Shown one piece after another: positions 38,165-47,309 of a stretch of 64,000 nucleotides of DNA (the stretch's first letter is position 1; each line of letters opens with the position of its first letter). The notes below the pieces were generated by a model, which saw only the letters and a list, made by a program, of their open reading frames with translations, did no database searches and was not told the DNA's origin. This DNA comes from Acidobacteriota bacterium. GTDB taxonomy: Bacteria; Acidobacteriota; Vicinamibacteria; Vicinamibacterales; UBA2999. The position numbers and the translations under genes were made by a program. Location: positions 12,704 to 76,703 of the forward strand of contig JABFSA010000003.1 of the NCBI GenBank assembly GCA_013140775.1, written 5' to 3'.

Positions 38165-39092
38165 TCATCGAGGCTTCGACTCTGGGCTGGTCGTGGCGCG
38201 CACCGCGTCCAGCGGGCTCCGGACGCCCCGGCCACCCTGGTTGAGGACGTGGGTGTAGATCATTGTCGTGCTCACGTCACGGTGTCCCAACAGTTCCTGG
38301 ATGGTCCTGATGTCGTACCCGGCCTCCAGGAGATGGGTAGCGAACGAGTGACGGAGAGAATGGCACGTCGCGGGTCGGGGAATGGCGGCCGCCCGTGCGG
38401 CGTCCTTCACAGCCCGCTGGAGCACCGACTCGTGCAGGTGATGACGCCTCCGCTCGCCGGTCGCCCGATCGACATAGAAGCGCGTGGCGGGGAATACCCA
38501 TTGCCACGCCCATTCGCGAGGCGCGTTGGGGTACTTCGCCCTGAGCGCGCCAGGGAGCGCGACGCTGCCGCGCCCGGCAGCGAGGTCTGCGTCGTGCTGG
38601 GCCTTCACCCGCGTCAAATGGTCCACGAGGGCCGACTTGATCGTGGCCGGCAGCATGGTCACGCGGTCCTTGCCGCCCTTGCCATCTCGAATCGCGAGTT
38701 CGCCGCGGTCGAAGTTGATGTCCTTGACGCGTAGCTCTGCGCACTCGAGGAGCCTCAGACCGGCACCGTACATGAGCGAGGCCATCAGCCAGACGGGACC
38801 ACGGAGCCGCGAGAGAAGCGATCCCACCTCGTCGCGCGAGAGCACCACGGGCAGACGCACGGGTCGTTGCGCTCGGACAATCTCGTGCATCCAGGTGAGT
38901 CGAGTGCCCAGCACGGCGTCGCACAGCGCTTCGGCCGCCGACAGAGCGATCCATCTGACGCGGCCGTGTGGGACCGTCGGTCCGGAGCAAGACCGTGGCA
39001 AGCGTATTGGCGCAGCGTGTGGGTCGGTGGCGAATGCTGAGGTGATCGGATCGGATCAGGTCGGTCTTGCGGAGCGACCGATGGTCCCTCAC
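38165..39092 (-). pseudogene. intI: Integron integrase with an intact catalytic domain but a decayed, frameshifted N-terminal domain
   Basis: [25 protein letters not shown], the integron-specific insert [35 protein letters not shown] and TTMIYTHV are intact. The N-terminal remnant (IRSDHLSIR...PRQMD) is in another frame and the ...STQNQ segment is missing. Confidence 0.8.
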
Positions 39093-40689: not shown

Positions 40690-43600
40690 CTACAGGCCGG
40701 CGGCGTATCTGGTGCGGGCGGCCGCGACAATCTGTCCGTATTTTGCCTGCATGAGCTCCCATTCGGTTTCGAGCAGTGACAGGCGTGCGTCGTTCAGCTC
40801 TGTCGCGGTGATGACACCGTTCTCGTAGGACACCTCGGCGATCGAGAGCCCTTCACGCGCAAGCTCTACGGCCTTCTCCTGGGTCGAAACGATTTCATGC
40901 GCTGCGTCGAGCTCCGTGGATGCGGTGGCCAGCTCGAGACGCGCGCTGTCGAGAGCGGCGTTGACACCGTGCTCAGCCTGCCGGACCCGGGCGGTTGCCG
41001 CGCCGCGACGAGCCGCGACGGTCGGCTGATTGAAAAGCGGGATCCGAACCGCCAGGCCAAACTGAAAGCTCCGGCTCGAGTTGTTCAGCAGTGAATCGAG
41101 ACCATCCTCCTGGTACTGAAAGTTGCCTGACAGCGCGACGGTCGGCTTTCGTTCGGCATTGGCGAGCGACACGAGCCGCTCGGCCGCCTCCCGTTGCTGA
41201 CCAATGGCACGGATATCGGGTCGCCTTGTGACGGCGCCTTCAATTGAAGCCACGTCCGGGACGGAGGGCACTTCCTCGAGCGACCCGGACAACTGGAGCG
41301 GTTCGTTCTGAGGCAGCGACAGCACGCTCCGTATCGCCTGATACGAGACTTGCGCCGAGCTGCGCGCGCGGATGAGTTTCGCGCGTGCGTTCGCCAGCTC
41401 GACCTCGGCGCGAAGCACATCGAGCCTGGCAGCCGACCCGGCGCTGAACCGCACTTGCGCGAGTTCGAGATGCCGTTCAGCAATGGTGACGCCTTCCTGA
41501 GCCACGCGCACGCCCTGGTCAGCGGTGAGCGCCGCGTAGAACGTCTCGTAGACGCGCAGCCTGAGCCCCTGTTGTGCGCGTTCGACATCCAGGCGGCTGC
41601 TTTCACTCGCTGCGGCCTGCGCTCCATACGCGTGCTGGAGCCGTCCTCCGGTGTAGACGGGCTGTGACACGTCGAGCCGCATGATGTTCACGCGTTGCAG
41701 GTTCACGCGAAACGTCTGCTCGGTCGGTGCGAAGATCCCTGCGGGGATTCGGAGGATCGGGCTTTCCTGCAGGGGCGTGTAGAGGAAGCTGAAATCCAGG
41801 GACGGGAAAAATGCCGCCCGGGCTTCGAGCGCGTTCGCCTGGCTTTCATTCAGTCGTTCGCGGGTGCCTTTGAGCCCCTCGTTTCGAGCCGCCGCCAGTT
41901 CCAGCGCCCGGTCAATCGTAAGCGGTCCACCAATGATTGGGGATGGCGTACCACCACTCTGGACGGCCGGCGCGCTCGCCGGCGCGTCGTCGTCGCCGGT
42001 CGCGGCAAACGCTGACGCTGCGCTGAGGAACGCGCCAACGAGCGCCAGCAGCACCAGCACGCCGGCGATGCGCGCTGCCGTGCGAATCCCCGCAGGCATC
42101 GGCGATTGACGCCACACCTTGAACCGCGCCACAGCCCCTTCGAGCAGCAGGTACGCCACAGGCACGACCACGAGTGTCAGCAGCGTTGACGTGATCAGTC
42201 CGCCAATCGTGGCAATCGAGATCGGCGCACGGAATTCGCTGCCGTCACCGTTCGCCCAGGCGGACGGCAGCATGCCGAGAATCATTGCGACGGTGGTCAT
42301 CACGATGGGCCGAAGCCGAACCGGTCCGGCCTGCAGCAGGGCATCCTTGAGCGGCAACCCTTTCTGGCGAAGCTGATTCGTATAGTCCACGAGAAGGATC
42401 GCGTTCTTCGTCACGAGCCCCATCAGCATCACGACACCGATCATGGCCGGCATGCCGAGATTCATCCCCATCGCCAGAAGCAGCAGGAGCGCACCGACGA
42501 GTGCCAGCGGCAGCGACAGCATGATGATGAAGGGCTGCAGGAATGACTCGAACTGCGACGACAGCACAATGTAGATGAATGAGACAGCCAGAATCATCGC
42601 GAGGCCCATGGCCGCGGCTGATTCCTGCATCAGTTCCACATCACCCGCGAATCCCCACTCGAACGTCCCCGGCATGGCCACCGACTCGACCGCGCGCTGC
42701 ACCTCGGCCGTCACGTTGCCCAGGGCGTAGCCGCTGGCCAGATCGATGCCGATCTTGGCCTGCCGCCGACGCTGCTCACGATCGATGTTGCTTGGACCGA
42801 CGGCTGGAGCGAATCGCACGATGTCGCTCGCTTTCACCGCCGCACCGGTCGGCGAATAGAGCGGCGCGCGCAGCATCGCTTCGGGATCGTTGCGATACTC
42901 CGGGGCGAGCCTGACGCGGATGTCGTGCTCGCGATCGCCGTCGCGCAGTCTCGTGGGCACCACGCCCTCGACCATGCCCCGAAGCTGCATGGCGACGCTG
43001 CCCACGCTGAAGCCCATGTCAGCGGCGAGAGAACGATTGACGCGCGCGACAACCTCAGGCTGACCGCTCACGAGGCTGTTGCTCACATCCACCGCGCCGG
43101 GAATCTGCCGCACCTTGGTCTGAATCTCGCTGGCGATGCGCTGCAGTGTTACGAGGTCATCCCCGCGGACGAACACGTTGATCGGTGGCTCGTACGGAGC
43201 GCCCTGCATGAACTCGGGGTCAGCGACCTTGCCGTCCACGAACGGAATCTCTGCGAGCATCGTGCGGACTTCGTTCTTGATCTCGCCAATGCCGCGCGTC
43301 CGCTCGGCCTTCTTTGTCGTCTTGACGCGCAGGCTCGATGCCCGTGTCTGTCCGTTGACGCCGACCGTGCTGAAGACCTGCGTCACCTCAGGAATGGCGA
43401 GCAGCGACCGTTCCACACCCGCGACGGTCGAGACACTCTGGTCAAAGGACGTCCCGGGCGGCAACTCGACGATGACCTGGAACTCGCCACGGTCCTCGGC
43501 CGGCACGAATTCAGTGCCCATGAGAGACGCTGCGCTCAAGCTGGCCACGAAGATGACGACGGCCATGCCGAGCGTCTTCCAGGGATTGTTCAGCGCCACC

Positions 43601-45168
43601 GCAAGGATGCGGTGATATCCGCGATCAAGGCTGTCGTACCCGCGGCCCATCCGCTCGAAGAGCCTGCCCGTTCGTGACCGCGTGCGCTCCTCGAGCGGCA
43701 CGAAGCGAACGAAGCGTGACGAAAGCATGGGGTCGAGCGTAAAGGCGACGAGCAGCGACATCGCGACGGCGAACGCAATCGTCAGCGCGAACGATTTGAA
43801 GAACTGGCCGACGATCCCGGTCATGAATCCAACCGGGAGGAATACCGCCAGGATGGTGAAGGTGGTCGCCATCACCGCGAGGCCGATCTCGGACGTGCCA
43901 CGTCGCGCCGCGGTCACCGGATCCTCGCCGTGCTCGAGGTGGCGGAAGATGTTCTCCCGCACCACCACGGCGTCGTCGATCAGGATGCCGATCACGAGCG
44001 ACAGCGCCATGAGCGTCATCATGTTGATCGTGAAGCCGGCGATCCACATGAAGAAGAAGGTCGAGATCACGGACGTCGGAAGGGCCAGCGCCGTGATGAG
44101 CGTGGAGCGCCAGTCACGCATGAAGACAAAGATGACGAGTACCGCCATCAGCGCGCCAAAGACGATCGCTTCGCGAACCTGTGCCACGTTCTCCTTGATG
44201 AACTCGGAGTCGTCGTGGACCGCCTTGATTTGCAGGTTCGGGAAGGTCGCGCGTGCCCGCTCGAGTGTCGCCTGAACGCGTTCGGCGATCGCTGCGGTAT
44301 TCCCGCCGGACTGCTTCTTGATGGAGAAGGACACGGCATCAGCGCCGTCGAGCCTGGTCGTGGATGTCCGCTCCTCGAAGCCGTCAACGACGCGCCCGAT
44401 GTCGCGGAGACGCACGGTTGACCCGGCAGCCGACCGCAGAATGACGTCTTCGATTTCATCGGCGGTTGCAAACTCGCCCTTCGTGCGAAGCGCGATCGTC
44501 TGTCCCGGTTGCTGCATCTGACCGCCGGGCAGGTCCAGGTTGTCGGCGGCGAGCGCGTCTGCGACGACGGATACAGGTAGTCCGAGGGCGTCGAGACGTC
44601 CCGGATCGAGCTCCACGTGAATCTCGCGTACCTCTCCGCCGTTCACCTCAACGGCGGCCACGCCGTCGATTTGCTCCAGAAGAGGTTTGAGGTCGTCTTC
44701 GACCTGGCGGCGCGTGATGTCGGATCGCTGTGAGGAGGCGACCGCGAACGTCATGATCGGCAGCGCCGAGACGTCGAATCGGACGATGGTCGGATCCTCG
44801 ATCTGTTCGGGCAGGCGGCTGCGAATCGCGGCGACTTTCTCACGGACCTCCGCTGCGGCAGTCTGCGGATCGACTTCCAGCCGCAACTCGAGGCCGACAA
44901 GCGCGCGGGACTCAGTGGACGTGGACATCACGCGCTTCACGCCGTTGATGCCGGCGACCGCATCTTCGATGGGTCGCGTCACGAGCGTCTCCACCTCTTC
45001 CGGAGACGCACCTGGGTACACCACGCTGATGTTCACGAACGGGAAGTTGATCTCGGGAAAGAGATCGATGCCCAGACGTGTGAGCGACACGATGCCCAGC
45101 ACCATGAAGCTCATGATGACCATCGTCGCGAAGACGGGCCGTCGGATGGAGATGTCAGAAATCCACAT
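40690..45168 (-). CDS. Fusion: RND efflux permease (AcrB/MdtB-like) + TolC-family outer-membrane factor
   Basis: About aa 1-1015 is RND (GIDLFP, GILIDDAVVVRENI, VTKNAILLVDY, RLRPIVMTT). About aa 1056-1492 is OEP/TolC (LTIDRALELA, FFPSLDF, GLAVRIPLFN). Single frame with no stop. Confidence 0.9.
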   Translation of the reverse strand: MWISDISIRRPVFATMVIMSFMVLGIVSLTRLGIDLFPEINFPFVNISVVYPGASPEEVETLVTRPIEDAVAGINGVKRVMSTSTESRALVGLELRLEVDPQTAAAEVREKVAAIRSRLPEQIEDPTIVRFDVSALPIMTFAVASSQRSDITRRQVEDDLKPLLEQIDGVAAVEVNGGEVREIHVELDPGRLDALGLPVSVVADALAADNLDLPGGQMQQPGQTIALRTKGEFATADEIEDVILRSAAGSTVRLRDIGRVVDGFEERTSTTRLDGADAVSFSIKKQSGGNTAAIAERVQATLERARATFPNLQIKAVHDDSEFIKENVAQVREAIVFGALMAVLVIFVFMRDWRSTLITALALPTSVISTFFFMWIAGFTINMMTLMALSLVIGILIDDAVVVRENIFRHLEHGEDPVTAARRGTSEIGLAVMATTFTILAVFLPVGFMTGIVGQFFKSFALTIAFAVAMSLLVAFTLDPMLSSRFVRFVPLEERTRSRTGRLFERMGRGYDSLDRGYHRILAVALNNPWKTLGMAVVIFVASLSAASLMGTEFVPAEDRGEFQVIVELPPGTSFDQSVSTVAGVERSLLAIPEVTQVFSTVGVNGQTRASSLRVKTTKKAERTRGIGEIKNEVRTMLAEIPFVDGKVADPEFMQGAPYEPPINVFVRGDDLVTLQRIASEIQTKVRQIPGAVDVSNSLVSGQPEVVARVNRSLAADMGFSVGSVAMQLRGMVEGVVPTRLRDGDREHDIRVRLAPEYRNDPEAMLRAPLYSPTGAAVKASDIVRFAPAVGPSNIDREQRRRQAKIGIDLASGYALGNVTAEVQRAVESVAMPGTFEWGFAGDVELMQESAAAMGLAMILAVSFIYIVLSSQFESFLQPFIIMLSLPLALVGALLLLLAMGMNLGMPAMIGVVMLMGLVTKNAILLVDYTNQLRQKGLPLKDALLQAGPVRLRPIVMTTVAMILGMLPSAWANGDGSEFRAPISIATIGGLITSTLLTLVVVPVAYLLLEGAVARFKVWRQSPMPAGIRTAARIAGVLVLLALVGAFLSAASAFAATGDDDAPASAPAVQSGGTPSPIIGGPLTIDRALELAAARNEGLKGTRERLNESQANALEARAAFFPSLDFSFLYTPLQESPILRIPAGIFAPTEQTFRVNLQRVNIMRLDVSQPVYTGGRLQHAYGAQAAASESSRLDVERAQQGLRLRVYETFYAALTADQGVRVAQEGVTIAERHLELAQVRFSAGSAARLDVLRAEVELANARAKLIRARSSAQVSYQAIRSVLSLPQNEPLQLSGSLEEVPSVPDVASIEGAVTRRPDIRAIGQQREAAERLVSLANAERKPTVALSGNFQYQEDGLDSLLNNSSRSFQFGLAVRIPLFNQPTVAARRGAATARVRQAEHGVNAALDSARLELATASTELDAAHEIVSTQEKAVELAREGLSIAEVSYENGVITATELNDARLSLLETEWELMQAKYGQIVAAARTRYAAGL

Positions 45169-45173
45169 GGCGT

Positions 45174-46364
45174 TTACCGGGCAAGAACCGCATTGACCTT
45201 GGTGCCTGTTGCGACGTCCTGGCGGGCGTCGGACACGATCGTGTCGCCTGCCTGGAGGCCACTGGCGATTTCGGTGACAACGCCGTCGGTGAGACCCTCA
45301 GTGACCGGCACCGGCTGGATCGTGTCGTTGTCGATGCGCAACGCGACGCGTTTCCCGTCGCGCGTCGTCACCGCGTCGCGGGGGACCGCAAGGACCTGGC
45401 TGGCTTGCTGAAGTGGGATCGCGGCCTCTCCGTACATCCCCGACAGCAGGGCGGAATCCGGGTTGGACATTCGAACTTCGATTTTGAAGTGCCGGTTGCG
45501 AGCGTCAATTTCAGGTGCGATTGCCGCGAGGCGTCCCTCGAAGGTTTTGCCTGGTAACGCCTGAGCCGTAACCCGCGCTGGCATGCCGACGCGCAATCGA
45601 CCGGCTTCGAGCTCTGAGACGCCAGCTTCGAGTTTCATCACCCGCACGTCCGCAATGACAACGACCGGTTCGTCGCCGGGTCCCACGAGGCTTCCCGCGT
45701 CGAAGTGGCGCTCGACGACGACGCCATTGACCGGGGAGGTGAGCGTGGCGTCGCGCTGGATCTCGGACGCCCTGCGGAGGGCCGCTTGCGCCTGAGCAAG
45801 GTTGGCCTGCGCAAGGTCCCGCTGGGCCGCCGTCGATCGCCGTGCGGTGTCCGCAGCGTCGAGGCGCTGCTTTGGAAGGGCACCGCGCTCGAACAGATTC
45901 TTTGCGCGCTCCTGTTCGAGGGTGGCGTTGGCGAGGCCGGCCTCGGCCGCTTCAACACCGGCAATTGCGACGTTCACGGACGCAGATGCGGCATCCACCT
46001 GAGCATCGATTTCCCGTCGGTCTATCGTGGCCAGAACCTGGCCTGCACGCACGCGGTCGCCGATGTCCACGTTGATACGCGACAACGTGCCCGGCAGCTT
46101 CGCCCGGATTTCAACGCGCGTCTGCGGTGCGAGATTGCCCGAGATCTGCAGAGACGATTCCAGGTCTGTCACTCCGACCTTCACCGCTGCCACGTCGATG
46201 CGGTGGTCGACTGGGGCGACCTCCGCAGAGGCGGCTGGTTCTGTTCCGCCGCATGCCGCGAATGAGCCTGCTGCAAGCAGGGCGAAAGCGGCGAGCAAGG
46301 GGAGACGGCGCGGTCGTCGAAATGAGCCAGGGGCCGGGTGGAGCAAACGGTTACGCTTGATCAT
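45174..46364 (-). CDS. RND periplasmic adaptor (MFP) subunit, probable lipoprotein
   Basis: FAAC lipobox-like segment, GDRVRAGQVL, coiled coil, SPVNGVV and LLSGMYG motifs. Confidence 0.9.
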   Translation of the reverse strand: MIKRNRLLHPAPGSFRRPRRLPLLAAFALLAAGSFAACGGTEPAASAEVAPVDHRIDVAAVKVGVTDLESSLQISGNLAPQTRVEIRAKLPGTLSRINVDIGDRVRAGQVLATIDRREIDAQVDAASASVNVAIAGVEAAEAGLANATLEQERAKNLFERGALPKQRLDAADTARRSTAAQRDLAQANLAQAQAALRRASEIQRDATLTSPVNGVVVERHFDAGSLVGPGDEPVVVIADVRVMKLEAGVSELEAGRLRVGMPARVTAQALPGKTFEGRLAAIAPEIDARNRHFKIEVRMSNPDSALLSGMYGEAAIPLQQASQVLAVPRDAVTTRDGKRVALRIDNDTIQPVPVTEGLTDGVVTEIASGLQAGDTIVSDARQDVATGTKVNAVLAR

Positions 46365-47037
46365 GAAGCACCTTTGAAGGGTCGCCTACGGCGTGGAACG
46401 GACAAACGGAGGCAACGAAGGTTGTGCCGACGTCGGTCGTGAATCCTGCGAGCATCGATTCGAGCAGGTCATGAGCCAGAGCGTCGGGGTCCTCGCCAGG
46501 GGCGAGTCGCTGTGACAGGCCGATGGTCGAGGCGCCGAGCATCCCCACCCACAATACGTGGAGCGCGGCAGACGGATTCAACCGCTTCGAGAACTGTTCG
46601 CGCTCGATGCAACGCTGGATGCAGTCCTCGAAGATCGCGGTTGTCGCCTGGAAGAACTCGAACCGCTGGAAGTCCTGGTTGAGACTGGGAACCGAACGAT
46701 CCACGAACATCAGGTCGAAGTACTCCGGGTGGGTTTTGGAGAACTGATAGAAGGCCCACAACCCGGCGCGCAGGCGATCGAAGGGATCCGCCACGTGCAC
46801 GCAGGAGGAGCCGCTCTCGGCAAGGAGCCGGAAGCCCTCTTCCGCGAGGGCGAAGAAAATATCGTCTTTACTGGGGAAGTAGCTGTAGATCGCCGCCGGG
46901 CTGTACTCGATTCGCTCCGCGATTTTCCGCATCGACACGTTGCGATAGCCCTCGGCGACGAACAGCTCACGTGCTGCCGTCAGAATGGCTTCGCTGATGC
47001 GATCACGCTCTCGTTGCTGGCGTTCCTTAGTGCCCAT
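46351..47037 (-). CDS. TetR/AcrR family transcriptional regulator
   Basis: ILTAARELFVAEGYRNVSMRKIAERIEYSPAAIYSYFPSKDDI HTH; heads the efflux operon. Confidence 0.92.
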   Translation of the reverse strand: MGTKERQQRERDRISEAILTAARELFVAEGYRNVSMRKIAERIEYSPAAIYSYFPSKDDIFFALAEEGFRLLAESGSSCVHVADPFDRLRAGLWAFYQFSKTHPEYFDLMFVDRSVPSLNQDFQRFEFFQATTAIFEDCIQRCIEREQFSKRLNPSAALHVLWVGMLGASTIGLSQRLAPGEDPDALAHDLLESMLAGFTTDVGTTFVASVCPFHAVGDPSKVLHDQA

Positions 47038-47067
47038 GAACACCCATCATGTAGTAAACAGTGTTCA
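47037..47067. promoter_or_regulatory. Candidate TetR operator(s)
   Basis: TGAACAC-N17-GTGTTCA inverted repeat, with the near-palindrome TAAACAGTGTTCA at 47055-47067, overlapping the tetR start. Confidence 0.45.
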
Positions 47068-47309
47068 GATGTCTAATGGTGTTTGATGCCTCGTGTGGTG
47101 TCGCAAACTCCGTCCCATGCGCTCCTGGCCAGGATGCCGGGTCAGGTAAACAACCGCAGTACAAGTGCTTGTTCCGTCTACCCGCTCGTGAGCGAATGCT
47201 GCGGCTGATGCGCGGCGGTCGTCAGTGTGCGGAAAAACCCCCGGTCACGCGTGTGGTTCCAGACACTTCGAGCCCCCAAGGATGGATCGCGTGATTCGAA
47301 CAATAATGA

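Follow-up and report, generated by a model that had tools for sequence, protein, structure and literature searches.

A conserved RND permease-TolC fusion gene of Acidobacteriota with a probable internal signal peptide

In many Acidobacteriota, the inner-membrane and outer-membrane components of a tripartite efflux pump are encoded as one protein. We describe such a gene in a 64,000-nucleotide stretch of an Acidobacteriota genome (contig JABFSA010000003.1; the whole stretch is hereafter the window). Its minus-strand positions 40690-45168 form a single open reading frame (ORF) of 1492 aa plus stop, in which an RND permease of the HAE1 type and a TolC-type outer-membrane factor (OMF) share one reading frame. 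The linker between them has the features of a Sec signal peptide, and it probably is one: an internal signal peptide whose cleavage would release the OMF. A preliminary description, made from the letters of the window, had proposed such a linker, cleavable by signal peptidase. Several lines of comparison now support that proposal: n-, h- and c-regions with a small-x-small motif in two clades, hypervariability immediately past the predicted site, Gln at the +1 position, and descent from the signal peptide of a separately encoded OMF. The parts of the gene, all on the minus strand, are as follows.

40690-45168 (-): whole RND-OMF fusion ORF, 1492 aa plus stop
42142-45168 (-): RND permease domain, aa 1-1009, 12 transmembrane (TM) helices, HAE1/MdtB-C-like (ACR_tran at 3-1009; NF033617 RND_permease_2, 831.9 bits)
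42070-42141 (-): basic cytoplasmic tail, the putative n-region, aa 1010-1033 (EGAVARFKVWRQSPMPAGIRTAAR), with 5 Arg/Lys within 24 aa
42025-42069 (-): hydrophobic core, putative h-region or "13th TM" helix, aa 1034-1048 (IAGVLVLLALVGAFL), conserved (0.86 bits)
42004-42024 (-): putative c-region SAASAFA, aa 1049-1055, small-x-small conserved; predicted signal peptidase I (SPase I) cut after A1055 (nt 42004/42003)
41923-42003 (-): low-complexity, disordered 27-residue spacer of Ala/Pro/Gly/Ser/Asp, aa 1056-1082 (ATGDDDAPASAPAVQSGGTPSPIIGGP), of variable length (entropy 2.53 bits; pLDDT <50)
40693-41922 (-): complete TolC/OMF domain, aa 1083-1492 (TIGR01844 at 1083-1491)

The Pfam and NCBIfam matches agree with the preliminary description in finding an RND permease followed by a complete TolC domain in the one ORF. 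The Pfam family ACR_tran (PF00873) covers aa 3-1009 with an E value of 6.8e-263, the profile having 1021 positions. The best NCBIfam models for this part are of the multidrug, MdtB/C-like kind and not of the heavy-metal type. Since the top model, the multidrug RND_permease_2 family NF033617, scores under its strict cut-off of 1250 bits, the RND part is classified from its sequence as HAE1-like and not as an equivalog of any named pump. In an alignment of 63 sequences no variation was seen at the proton-relay residues, the Asp pair of TM4 (D398 and D399) and the Lys of TM10 (K921); from their motif context these would be equivalent to D407, D408 and K940 of AcrB. In the C-terminal part, two OEP repeats (PF02321) reach aa 1491, as does the TolC-family match (TIGR01844). 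An AlphaFold2 (AF2) monomer model of aa 1015-1492 has a pLDDT of 84 and the canonical H1-H8/S1-S5 topology, with helices of 68-69 residues and OMF helix H1 beginning at aa ~1085. Foldseek aligned it over 411-425 columns to SilC, CusC, TOprJ1, TolC, OprN, VceC and OprM, with E values down to 5e-20 and TM scores of 0.7-0.85 against all solved OMFs (~415 columns). In the same region AF2 predicts a helix over aa 1026-1055 and gives the spacer, aa 1056-1082, a pLDDT below 50. A model of aa 1-1075, built on a shallow alignment, again has the helix at 1026-1055, but with a mean pLDDT of 63.7, at which the packing of a 13th helix is not reliable. There is no Cys in the linker or at the +1 position of the fusion protein, so the sequence has no lipobox of the NodT/OprM lipoprotein type and the OMF half is predicted to be TolC-type and non-lipidated.

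The fusion is genuine and its conservation ancient, and it goes far beyond chance. Window positions 41700-42400 are covered by Logan contigs of four metagenome runs, drawn from three studies (drinking-water and others), which show no gaps and differ by one substitution at most, and this independent reproduction of the junction excludes a hidden stop or frameshift there, an outcome that the preliminary description had named as fatal to its proposal. None of the Logan matches to the locus was an RNA run. Searching with the linker plus the TolC part gave 494 matches, of which the best 120 (64-95% identity) are almost all 1456-1504 aa long with both Pfam domains; matches to the RND end were alike. 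Intact orthologues span 1456-1515 aa. More than 110 full-length fused homologues occur in metagenomes. Among 151 species-level genomes sampled from the same order, at least 43 have the entire junction in one stop-free frame of ~1480-1570 aa, and when 401 genomes of the phylum were searched with a profile, more fused copies turned up in other families (G359, G203, G294, G386, G431, G476, G393 and G397). Named carriers are metagenome-assembled genomes (MAGs) of Vicinamibacterales, "Acidobacteriota" and Thermoanaerobaculales. The fused proteins fall into two clades: the orthologues of the window gene are 63-78% identical to it, whereas members of clade 2 are only ~35% identical yet align from residue 1 to 1491.

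We give almost no credence to the idea that the ORF is an artefact or pseudogene, two neighbouring genes having run together through an error of sequencing or assembly or through a mutation that recently inactivated them; as far as sequence data go, it is already refuted. In unfused relatives (see below) the stop and start codons overlap, such that an error of 1 nucleotide could fuse them, and a few homologues are frameshifted (L028, P0129, P0137, L023 and L024). Against this, the junction is identical in independent contigs from the three studies, and hundreds of intact orthologues of 1456-1515 aa are found across the order and beyond, with both halves constrained (mean column entropy 0.46 bits for the RND and 0.66 bits for the OMF).

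The frameshifted homologues are of two kinds. In L028 (G105:C19), P0129 and P0137 the frameshift lies within the low-complexity spacer, just past the signal peptide, and TolC is no longer in frame; the MAG sequences may contain errors at GC-rich repeats, or the OMF half may truly be inactivated. In L023 (G116:C6) and L024 (G056:C13), from one genus, the RND part changes frame once, at about aa 752 and aa 511, respectively, and the junction and OMF are intact; they are possible pseudogenes or assembly errors. Separately, three fusions of the Acidobacteriota type with 38-73% identity, L055 (CAZUGF010000080.1), L129 (CAMBQS010000110.1) and P0042, sit in MAGs labelled Bifidobacteriaceae, Desulfocicer vacuolatum and Acidimicrobiia; their contigs are probably mis-binned or mislabelled.

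The evidence for processing comes from the linker. All of its elements named in the preliminary description are at the positions given there: the basic stretch RFKVWR...RTAAR, the core IAGVLVLLALVGAFL, and ASAFA/ATGDDD, with the cut between aa 1055 and 1056 at nt 42004/42003. A tail with five Lys/Arg, a 15-aa h-region and a 7-aa c-region together have the layout of a Sec signal peptide, in which the h-region has about 7-15 residues and the c-region 3-7, although the segment, aa 1010-1055, sits behind 12 TM helices and not at an N terminus. For linker statistics we used 112 full-length clade-1 proteins and a separate set of 38 species-level homologues, and the n/h/c layout is common to both. 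The last 12 residues ahead of the core contain 1-3 Lys/Arg in 112/112. Conservation of the AxA site among fused homologues, suggested earlier as a check, was borne out: position -3 is Ala, Val or Thr in 112/112 (83, 28 and 1) and position -1 is Ala or Gly in 111/112 (108 and 3, with one Pro), while position -2 is Phe in 101, Trp in 9, and Cys and Gly in one each. At +1 are Gln (62), Gly (17), Ala (15), Ser (12), Asp (3), Glu (2) and Asn (1). The A-F-A/A of the window gene conforms to the -3/-1 rule and has no Pro from -3 to +1, and small-x-small is present in 38/38 of the species-level homologues.

Past the site, this constraint disappears. Averaged over columns, the entropy goes from 0.46 bits for the RND through 1.28 (tail), 0.86 (h-region) and 0.80 (c-region) to 2.53 over the next 20 residues, and is 0.66 again in the OMF; the step in variability is therefore located exactly at the predicted cut, where the value goes from 0.80 to 2.53. 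From the site to the conserved OMF start, PLTIDRAL, there are 2-39 residues (median 14). The clade-2 genes (n=21) have an RRRR/RK tail, a core of ~10-13 residues, a small-x-small motif (APASA, TVASA, ARASA and others) and then Gln in 17/21. With their short cores and Pro/Gly-rich c-regions, these linkers look like signal peptides and not like TM segments.

The residue that follows the site is informative. Gln occupies +1 of the internal site in 62/112, 12/17 and 17/21 homologues, and the signal peptides of the genome's standalone OMFs end in ...APAFA/Q (twice), ...AIASA/Q, ...SLATA/Q and ...GAGA/Q. In a crude scan of the genome, 219 candidate N-terminal signal peptides with AxA were followed by Gln in 36% of cases, vs 3.6% after AxA elsewhere. 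A glutaminyl cyclase gene (Glu_cyclase_2) is also present in the genome (G000:C80:17284-17931). Under the Q-rule of Bacteroidetes, Gln at +1 is selected since it becomes the free N terminus and is cyclised (PMC5837995, PMC10653852). Retention of Gln at +1 amid otherwise unconstrained sequence argues that the bond is cut and is hard to explain otherwise. The machinery for the proposed route is available: the genome has at least two SPase I genes, and its best BamA (TIGR03303, E 6.3e-133) lies in the window at about 56948-59320 on the plus strand, ~12 kb from the fusion gene.

As an observation in its own right, the source Acidobacteriota genome has a Q-rule-like bias; the published Q-rule is described as Bacteroidetes-specific.

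Could the chain be processed by another protease, or elsewhere, for instance in the disordered spacer, with no involvement of SPase I? The spacer is exposed and disordered, and the SPase site is itself ambiguous by ~2 aa, as ASA/FA, two residues upstream, satisfies the -3/-1 rule equally with AFA/A. The spacer has no conserved sequence or length, however, and is only 2-5 aa long in 22/112 homologues, whereas the canonical SPase I c-region is the only conserved motif and resembles the N-terminal signal peptides of this organism. We regard processing of this other kind as very unlikely.

Unfused relatives indicate where the linker came from. Orthologous RND and OMF genes are unfused pairs in two genomes of other families of the phylum, G235 and G480. 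In G235 (L141, G235:C128; locus nt 1278-1285), the ATG of the OMF gene shares nucleotides with the RND stop codon (ATGCGTAG), GGAGG stands 7 nt before it, and the OMF has the N-terminal signal peptide MRRKRDMRAGLLLLAVALLAGAIRAGEA/RALTLPEA.... This stop/start overlap is classic translational coupling, and because the genes overlap, a single-nucleotide change suffices to fuse them. In G480, the RND ends at TGA and a same-frame OMF start follows 26 codons on: M...FRRRGPAPAPGLACLLVTAGVLLGMAGSARA/EVRMLTLEDA.... Both OMF genes have their own ATG, a GGAGG Shine-Dalgarno motif and a signal peptide at the position equivalent to the linker. The fusion linker is therefore the OMF's own signal peptide, inherited from an OMF gene that was separate and translationally coupled and in whose product it stood at the N terminus. 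Fusion did away with the stop, the start and the Shine-Dalgarno motif and left the n-, h- and c-regions in place. In the OMF-domain tree the unfused G235 and G480 fall within the clade-2 supergroup and share a polytomy with fused proteins, which means at least one fusion or fission event within that supergroup, the tree giving no direction.

The same comparison bears on internal initiation, the alternative put forward in the preliminary description, in which a separate pre-OMF would be translated from a start in the linker, at Met1024, and the full-length fusion would be made in minor amounts or be irrelevant. In the window, M1024-PAGIRTAARIAGVL...ASAFA would indeed make a textbook signal peptide. 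Met1024 is at ATG 42099-42097, and as had been remarked it lacks a good ribosome-binding site, the sole Shine-Dalgarno-like element being a badly spaced AAGGTG 15 nt upstream, too far away. That absence is weak counter-evidence, as clade-1 genes often have no Shine-Dalgarno motif even at the true RND start. What disfavors internal initiation is that start codons are not conserved. The Met, found in close relatives only, is absent from 38/38 species-level homologues, where its column holds CTC, CTG, GCC, GCG or a gap, and no other in-frame ATG, GTG or TTG is conserved in the tail or signal peptide; L037 has none there at all. Shine-Dalgarno-like motifs occur in the linkers of only 5/39, at non-homologous positions. 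Moreover, a G-rich Shine-Dalgarno motif is conserved at the true RND start of clade-2 genes and has no internal counterpart, the ATG and GGAGG of the unfused relatives show that initiation signals were lost on fusion, and a consensus scan found no promoter-like site near the RND-OMF junction. We consider internal initiation highly improbable.

A natural truncation also ends at the predicted cut. Genome G074, of the same order, has a syntenic TetR-adaptor-RND operon (L133/L153, G074:C10, about 807788-810949; 58%, 60% and 72% identity) whose RND aligns to residues 1-1055 of the window protein, with TGA directly after ...VIAVASAFA. No TolC was found within about 7-8 kb on either side of it. This is a free-standing RND whose C terminus equals the predicted post-cleavage end. 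The best 120 matches, almost all fusions, include no further RND-only orthologue ending at AFA, and other short orthologues are contig fragments or spacer frameshifts. Candidates for "read-through" RND genes, L134-L140, which seemed to run on past a stop into a stretch resembling a signal peptide, were rejected: they have no TolC downstream and the Ala-rich matches arose by chance.

G074 retains the hydrophobic segment without any TolC, as might be expected of an uncleaved signal anchor, i.e., a permanent 13th TM helix that would make one polypeptide both inner-membrane pump and tethered outer-membrane channel. The uncharged conserved segment of clade 1, at 22 aa, is also long enough to span a membrane. 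Geometry argues otherwise. In AcrB structures the RND headpiece is ~70 Å high. OMFs have a ~40-Å beta-barrel and a ~100-Å alpha-barrel, with the N-terminal helix H1 in the equatorial belt, at mid-height (PMC8277102, section 6.2). Because H1 sits midway along the alpha-barrel above the headpiece, a tether would need to reach at least ~120 Å even with the OMF docked directly on the RND. The spacers, of 2-39 aa, are in 106/112 cases too short even when fully extended, and a permanent tether is geometrically implausible. In addition, a stable TM helix would need more than the ~10-13 aa of the clade-2 cores, whose c-regions are rich in Pro/Gly, and enrichment of Gln at +1 has no rationale without a free N terminus. 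An uncleaved anchor thus has little to recommend it, and we judge it a slim prospect.

Some considerations do weigh against cleavage of an internal signal peptide. It is deduced from the -3/-1 rule and comparative patterns. For a signal peptide, the 22-aa uncharged stretch of clade 1 is unusually conserved (0.8-0.9 bits) and could be a stable anchor, and conservation of AxA could stem from constraints on helix packing and not from recognition by a peptidase. The stop at the cut site in G074 comes from a single genome. We nevertheless favor the cleaved internal signal peptide, for which the following scheme can be drawn.

The gene product would be a polyprotein, the precursor of two components of a tripartite RND efflux pump of the HAE1 type under TetR regulation. 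The ribosome would make a single chain, of which the RND part would insert co-translationally in the inner membrane, ending with TM12 and a cytoplasmic C terminus. The basic tail and hydrophobic core would then insert N-in/C-out as a Sec signal peptide, and the same translocon would export the downstream OMF domain. SPase I would cut after ...SAASAFA (A1055, +/- 2 aa), freeing into the periplasm an OMF of ~46 kDa that begins at the disordered spacer, passes to the outer membrane by the usual chaperone/BamA route and trimerises as the exit duct. The RND subunit would retain the ex-signal peptide as a C-terminal 13th helix, and RND trimer, lipoprotein adaptor and OMF trimer would assemble as in AcrAB-TolC. 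Fusion would give equimolar RND and OMF, in line with the 3:6:3 stoichiometry of such pumps; the enforced 1:1 synthesis, which the preliminary description had proposed, may be a benefit. Alternatively, the fusion may be merely a tolerated one-nucleotide accident between overlapping genes, with the internal signal peptide still working.

A further possibility goes beyond release of the OMF. The ex-signal peptide might persist as a functional 13th TM helix, with its free ...AFA end at the periplasmic face and a role of its own, e.g., packing on the TM bundle as the small protein AcrZ packs on AcrB, and the OMF might be handed over in cis, each RND trimer seeding its own duct. A functional helix is hinted at because the segment is better conserved (0.8-0.9 bits) than its flanks, has a fixed length of 22 aa in clade 1, and is intact in G074 despite the loss of TolC. 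We put this forward tentatively and think it rather unlikely as a whole.

The fusion gene is the last of a compact operon in the order TetR, adaptor, fusion. The TetR gene overlaps the start of the adaptor (membrane fusion protein, MFP) gene by 14 nt, and the adaptor stop is 5 nt ahead of the RND start. The upstream features are these.

45174-46364 (-): periplasmic adaptor (MFP), a lipoprotein (TIGR01730 RND_mfp, 6.6e-65; lipobox ...LLAAGSFAAC/GG)
46351-47043 (-): TetR-family regulator, first gene of the operon (Pfam TetR_N, 5.8e-18, and TetR_C_33)
47046-47075 (-): candidate sigma-70-like promoter upstream of the TetR gene (TAGACA-18-CATGAT, 9/12 consensus), no more than a weak match

Two genes downstream of the pump operon, at 38165-39001 on the minus strand, is a tyrosine recombinase (Phage_integrase, 2.5e-35). 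The host is described as a soil/water acidobacterium.

As models, tripartite efflux pumps are central to work on trans-envelope machines and on drug resistance, and to our knowledge their parts have always been described as separate proteins. The preliminary description had called RND-OMF fusions known; we could not trace this to any paper, and it rests on database architectures. Our literature search found no paper on natural RND-OMF fusions, on which a major review is silent, and no published description of signal-peptidase maturation of an efflux-pump polyprotein. The gene is the natural, conserved source of a precursor in which one chain comprises both an inner-membrane transporter and an outer-membrane beta-barrel, and it opens several questions. 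Does SPase I work efficiently on a signal peptide that follows 12 TM helices? Could targeting of an outer-membrane protein be co-translational, via the signal recognition particle and an upstream partner, rather than post-translational? Does equimolar, co-localised synthesis aid pump assembly, and does the RND tolerate or use a 13th helix? There is also a consequence for annotation: such genes are labelled just "RND permease" or "HAE1", and the OMF is therefore overlooked in many Acidobacteriota genomes.

As a pump the system is ordinary; what is out of the ordinary is its biogenesis as a polyprotein for two membranes. AcrAB-TolC of E. coli, MexAB-OprM of P. aeruginosa and MdtABC-TolC have the same three components and folds, and the pump here shares with them a 12-TM RND of the HAE1 type, an intact DD/K relay, a lipoprotein adaptor, an OMF of the TolC/OprM fold and a local TetR. 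In contrast to these canonical pumps, the RND and OMF here are in one frame, joined by the predicted internal signal peptide; the RND would have an extra C-terminal helix after cleavage; and targeting of the OMF would be co-translational, following a polytopic protein in the same chain, where the canonical OMF is a free precursor. The TetR gene points the same way as the pump genes and is not divergent from them. For a bacterial polyprotein one may compare FbcH of Bradyrhizobium japonicum, which Thony-Meyer, James and Hennecke reportedly described in PNAS in 1991 as a cytochrome b-c1 polyprotein. Both FbcH products are said to remain at the inner membrane, whereas the freed OMF here must reach the outer membrane and fold as a beta-barrel trimer. 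For an internal signal peptide the comparison is the Rieske protein of Streptomyces, which has one of the Tat type (PMC13186574). As in the fusion described here, it follows TM segments and exports the C-terminal domain of a polytopic protein. The Streptomyces protein, however, uses the Tat pathway, its signal peptide is uncleaved and the domain stays attached, whereas the linker of the RND-OMF fusion has Sec-type features and a predicted SPase I site.

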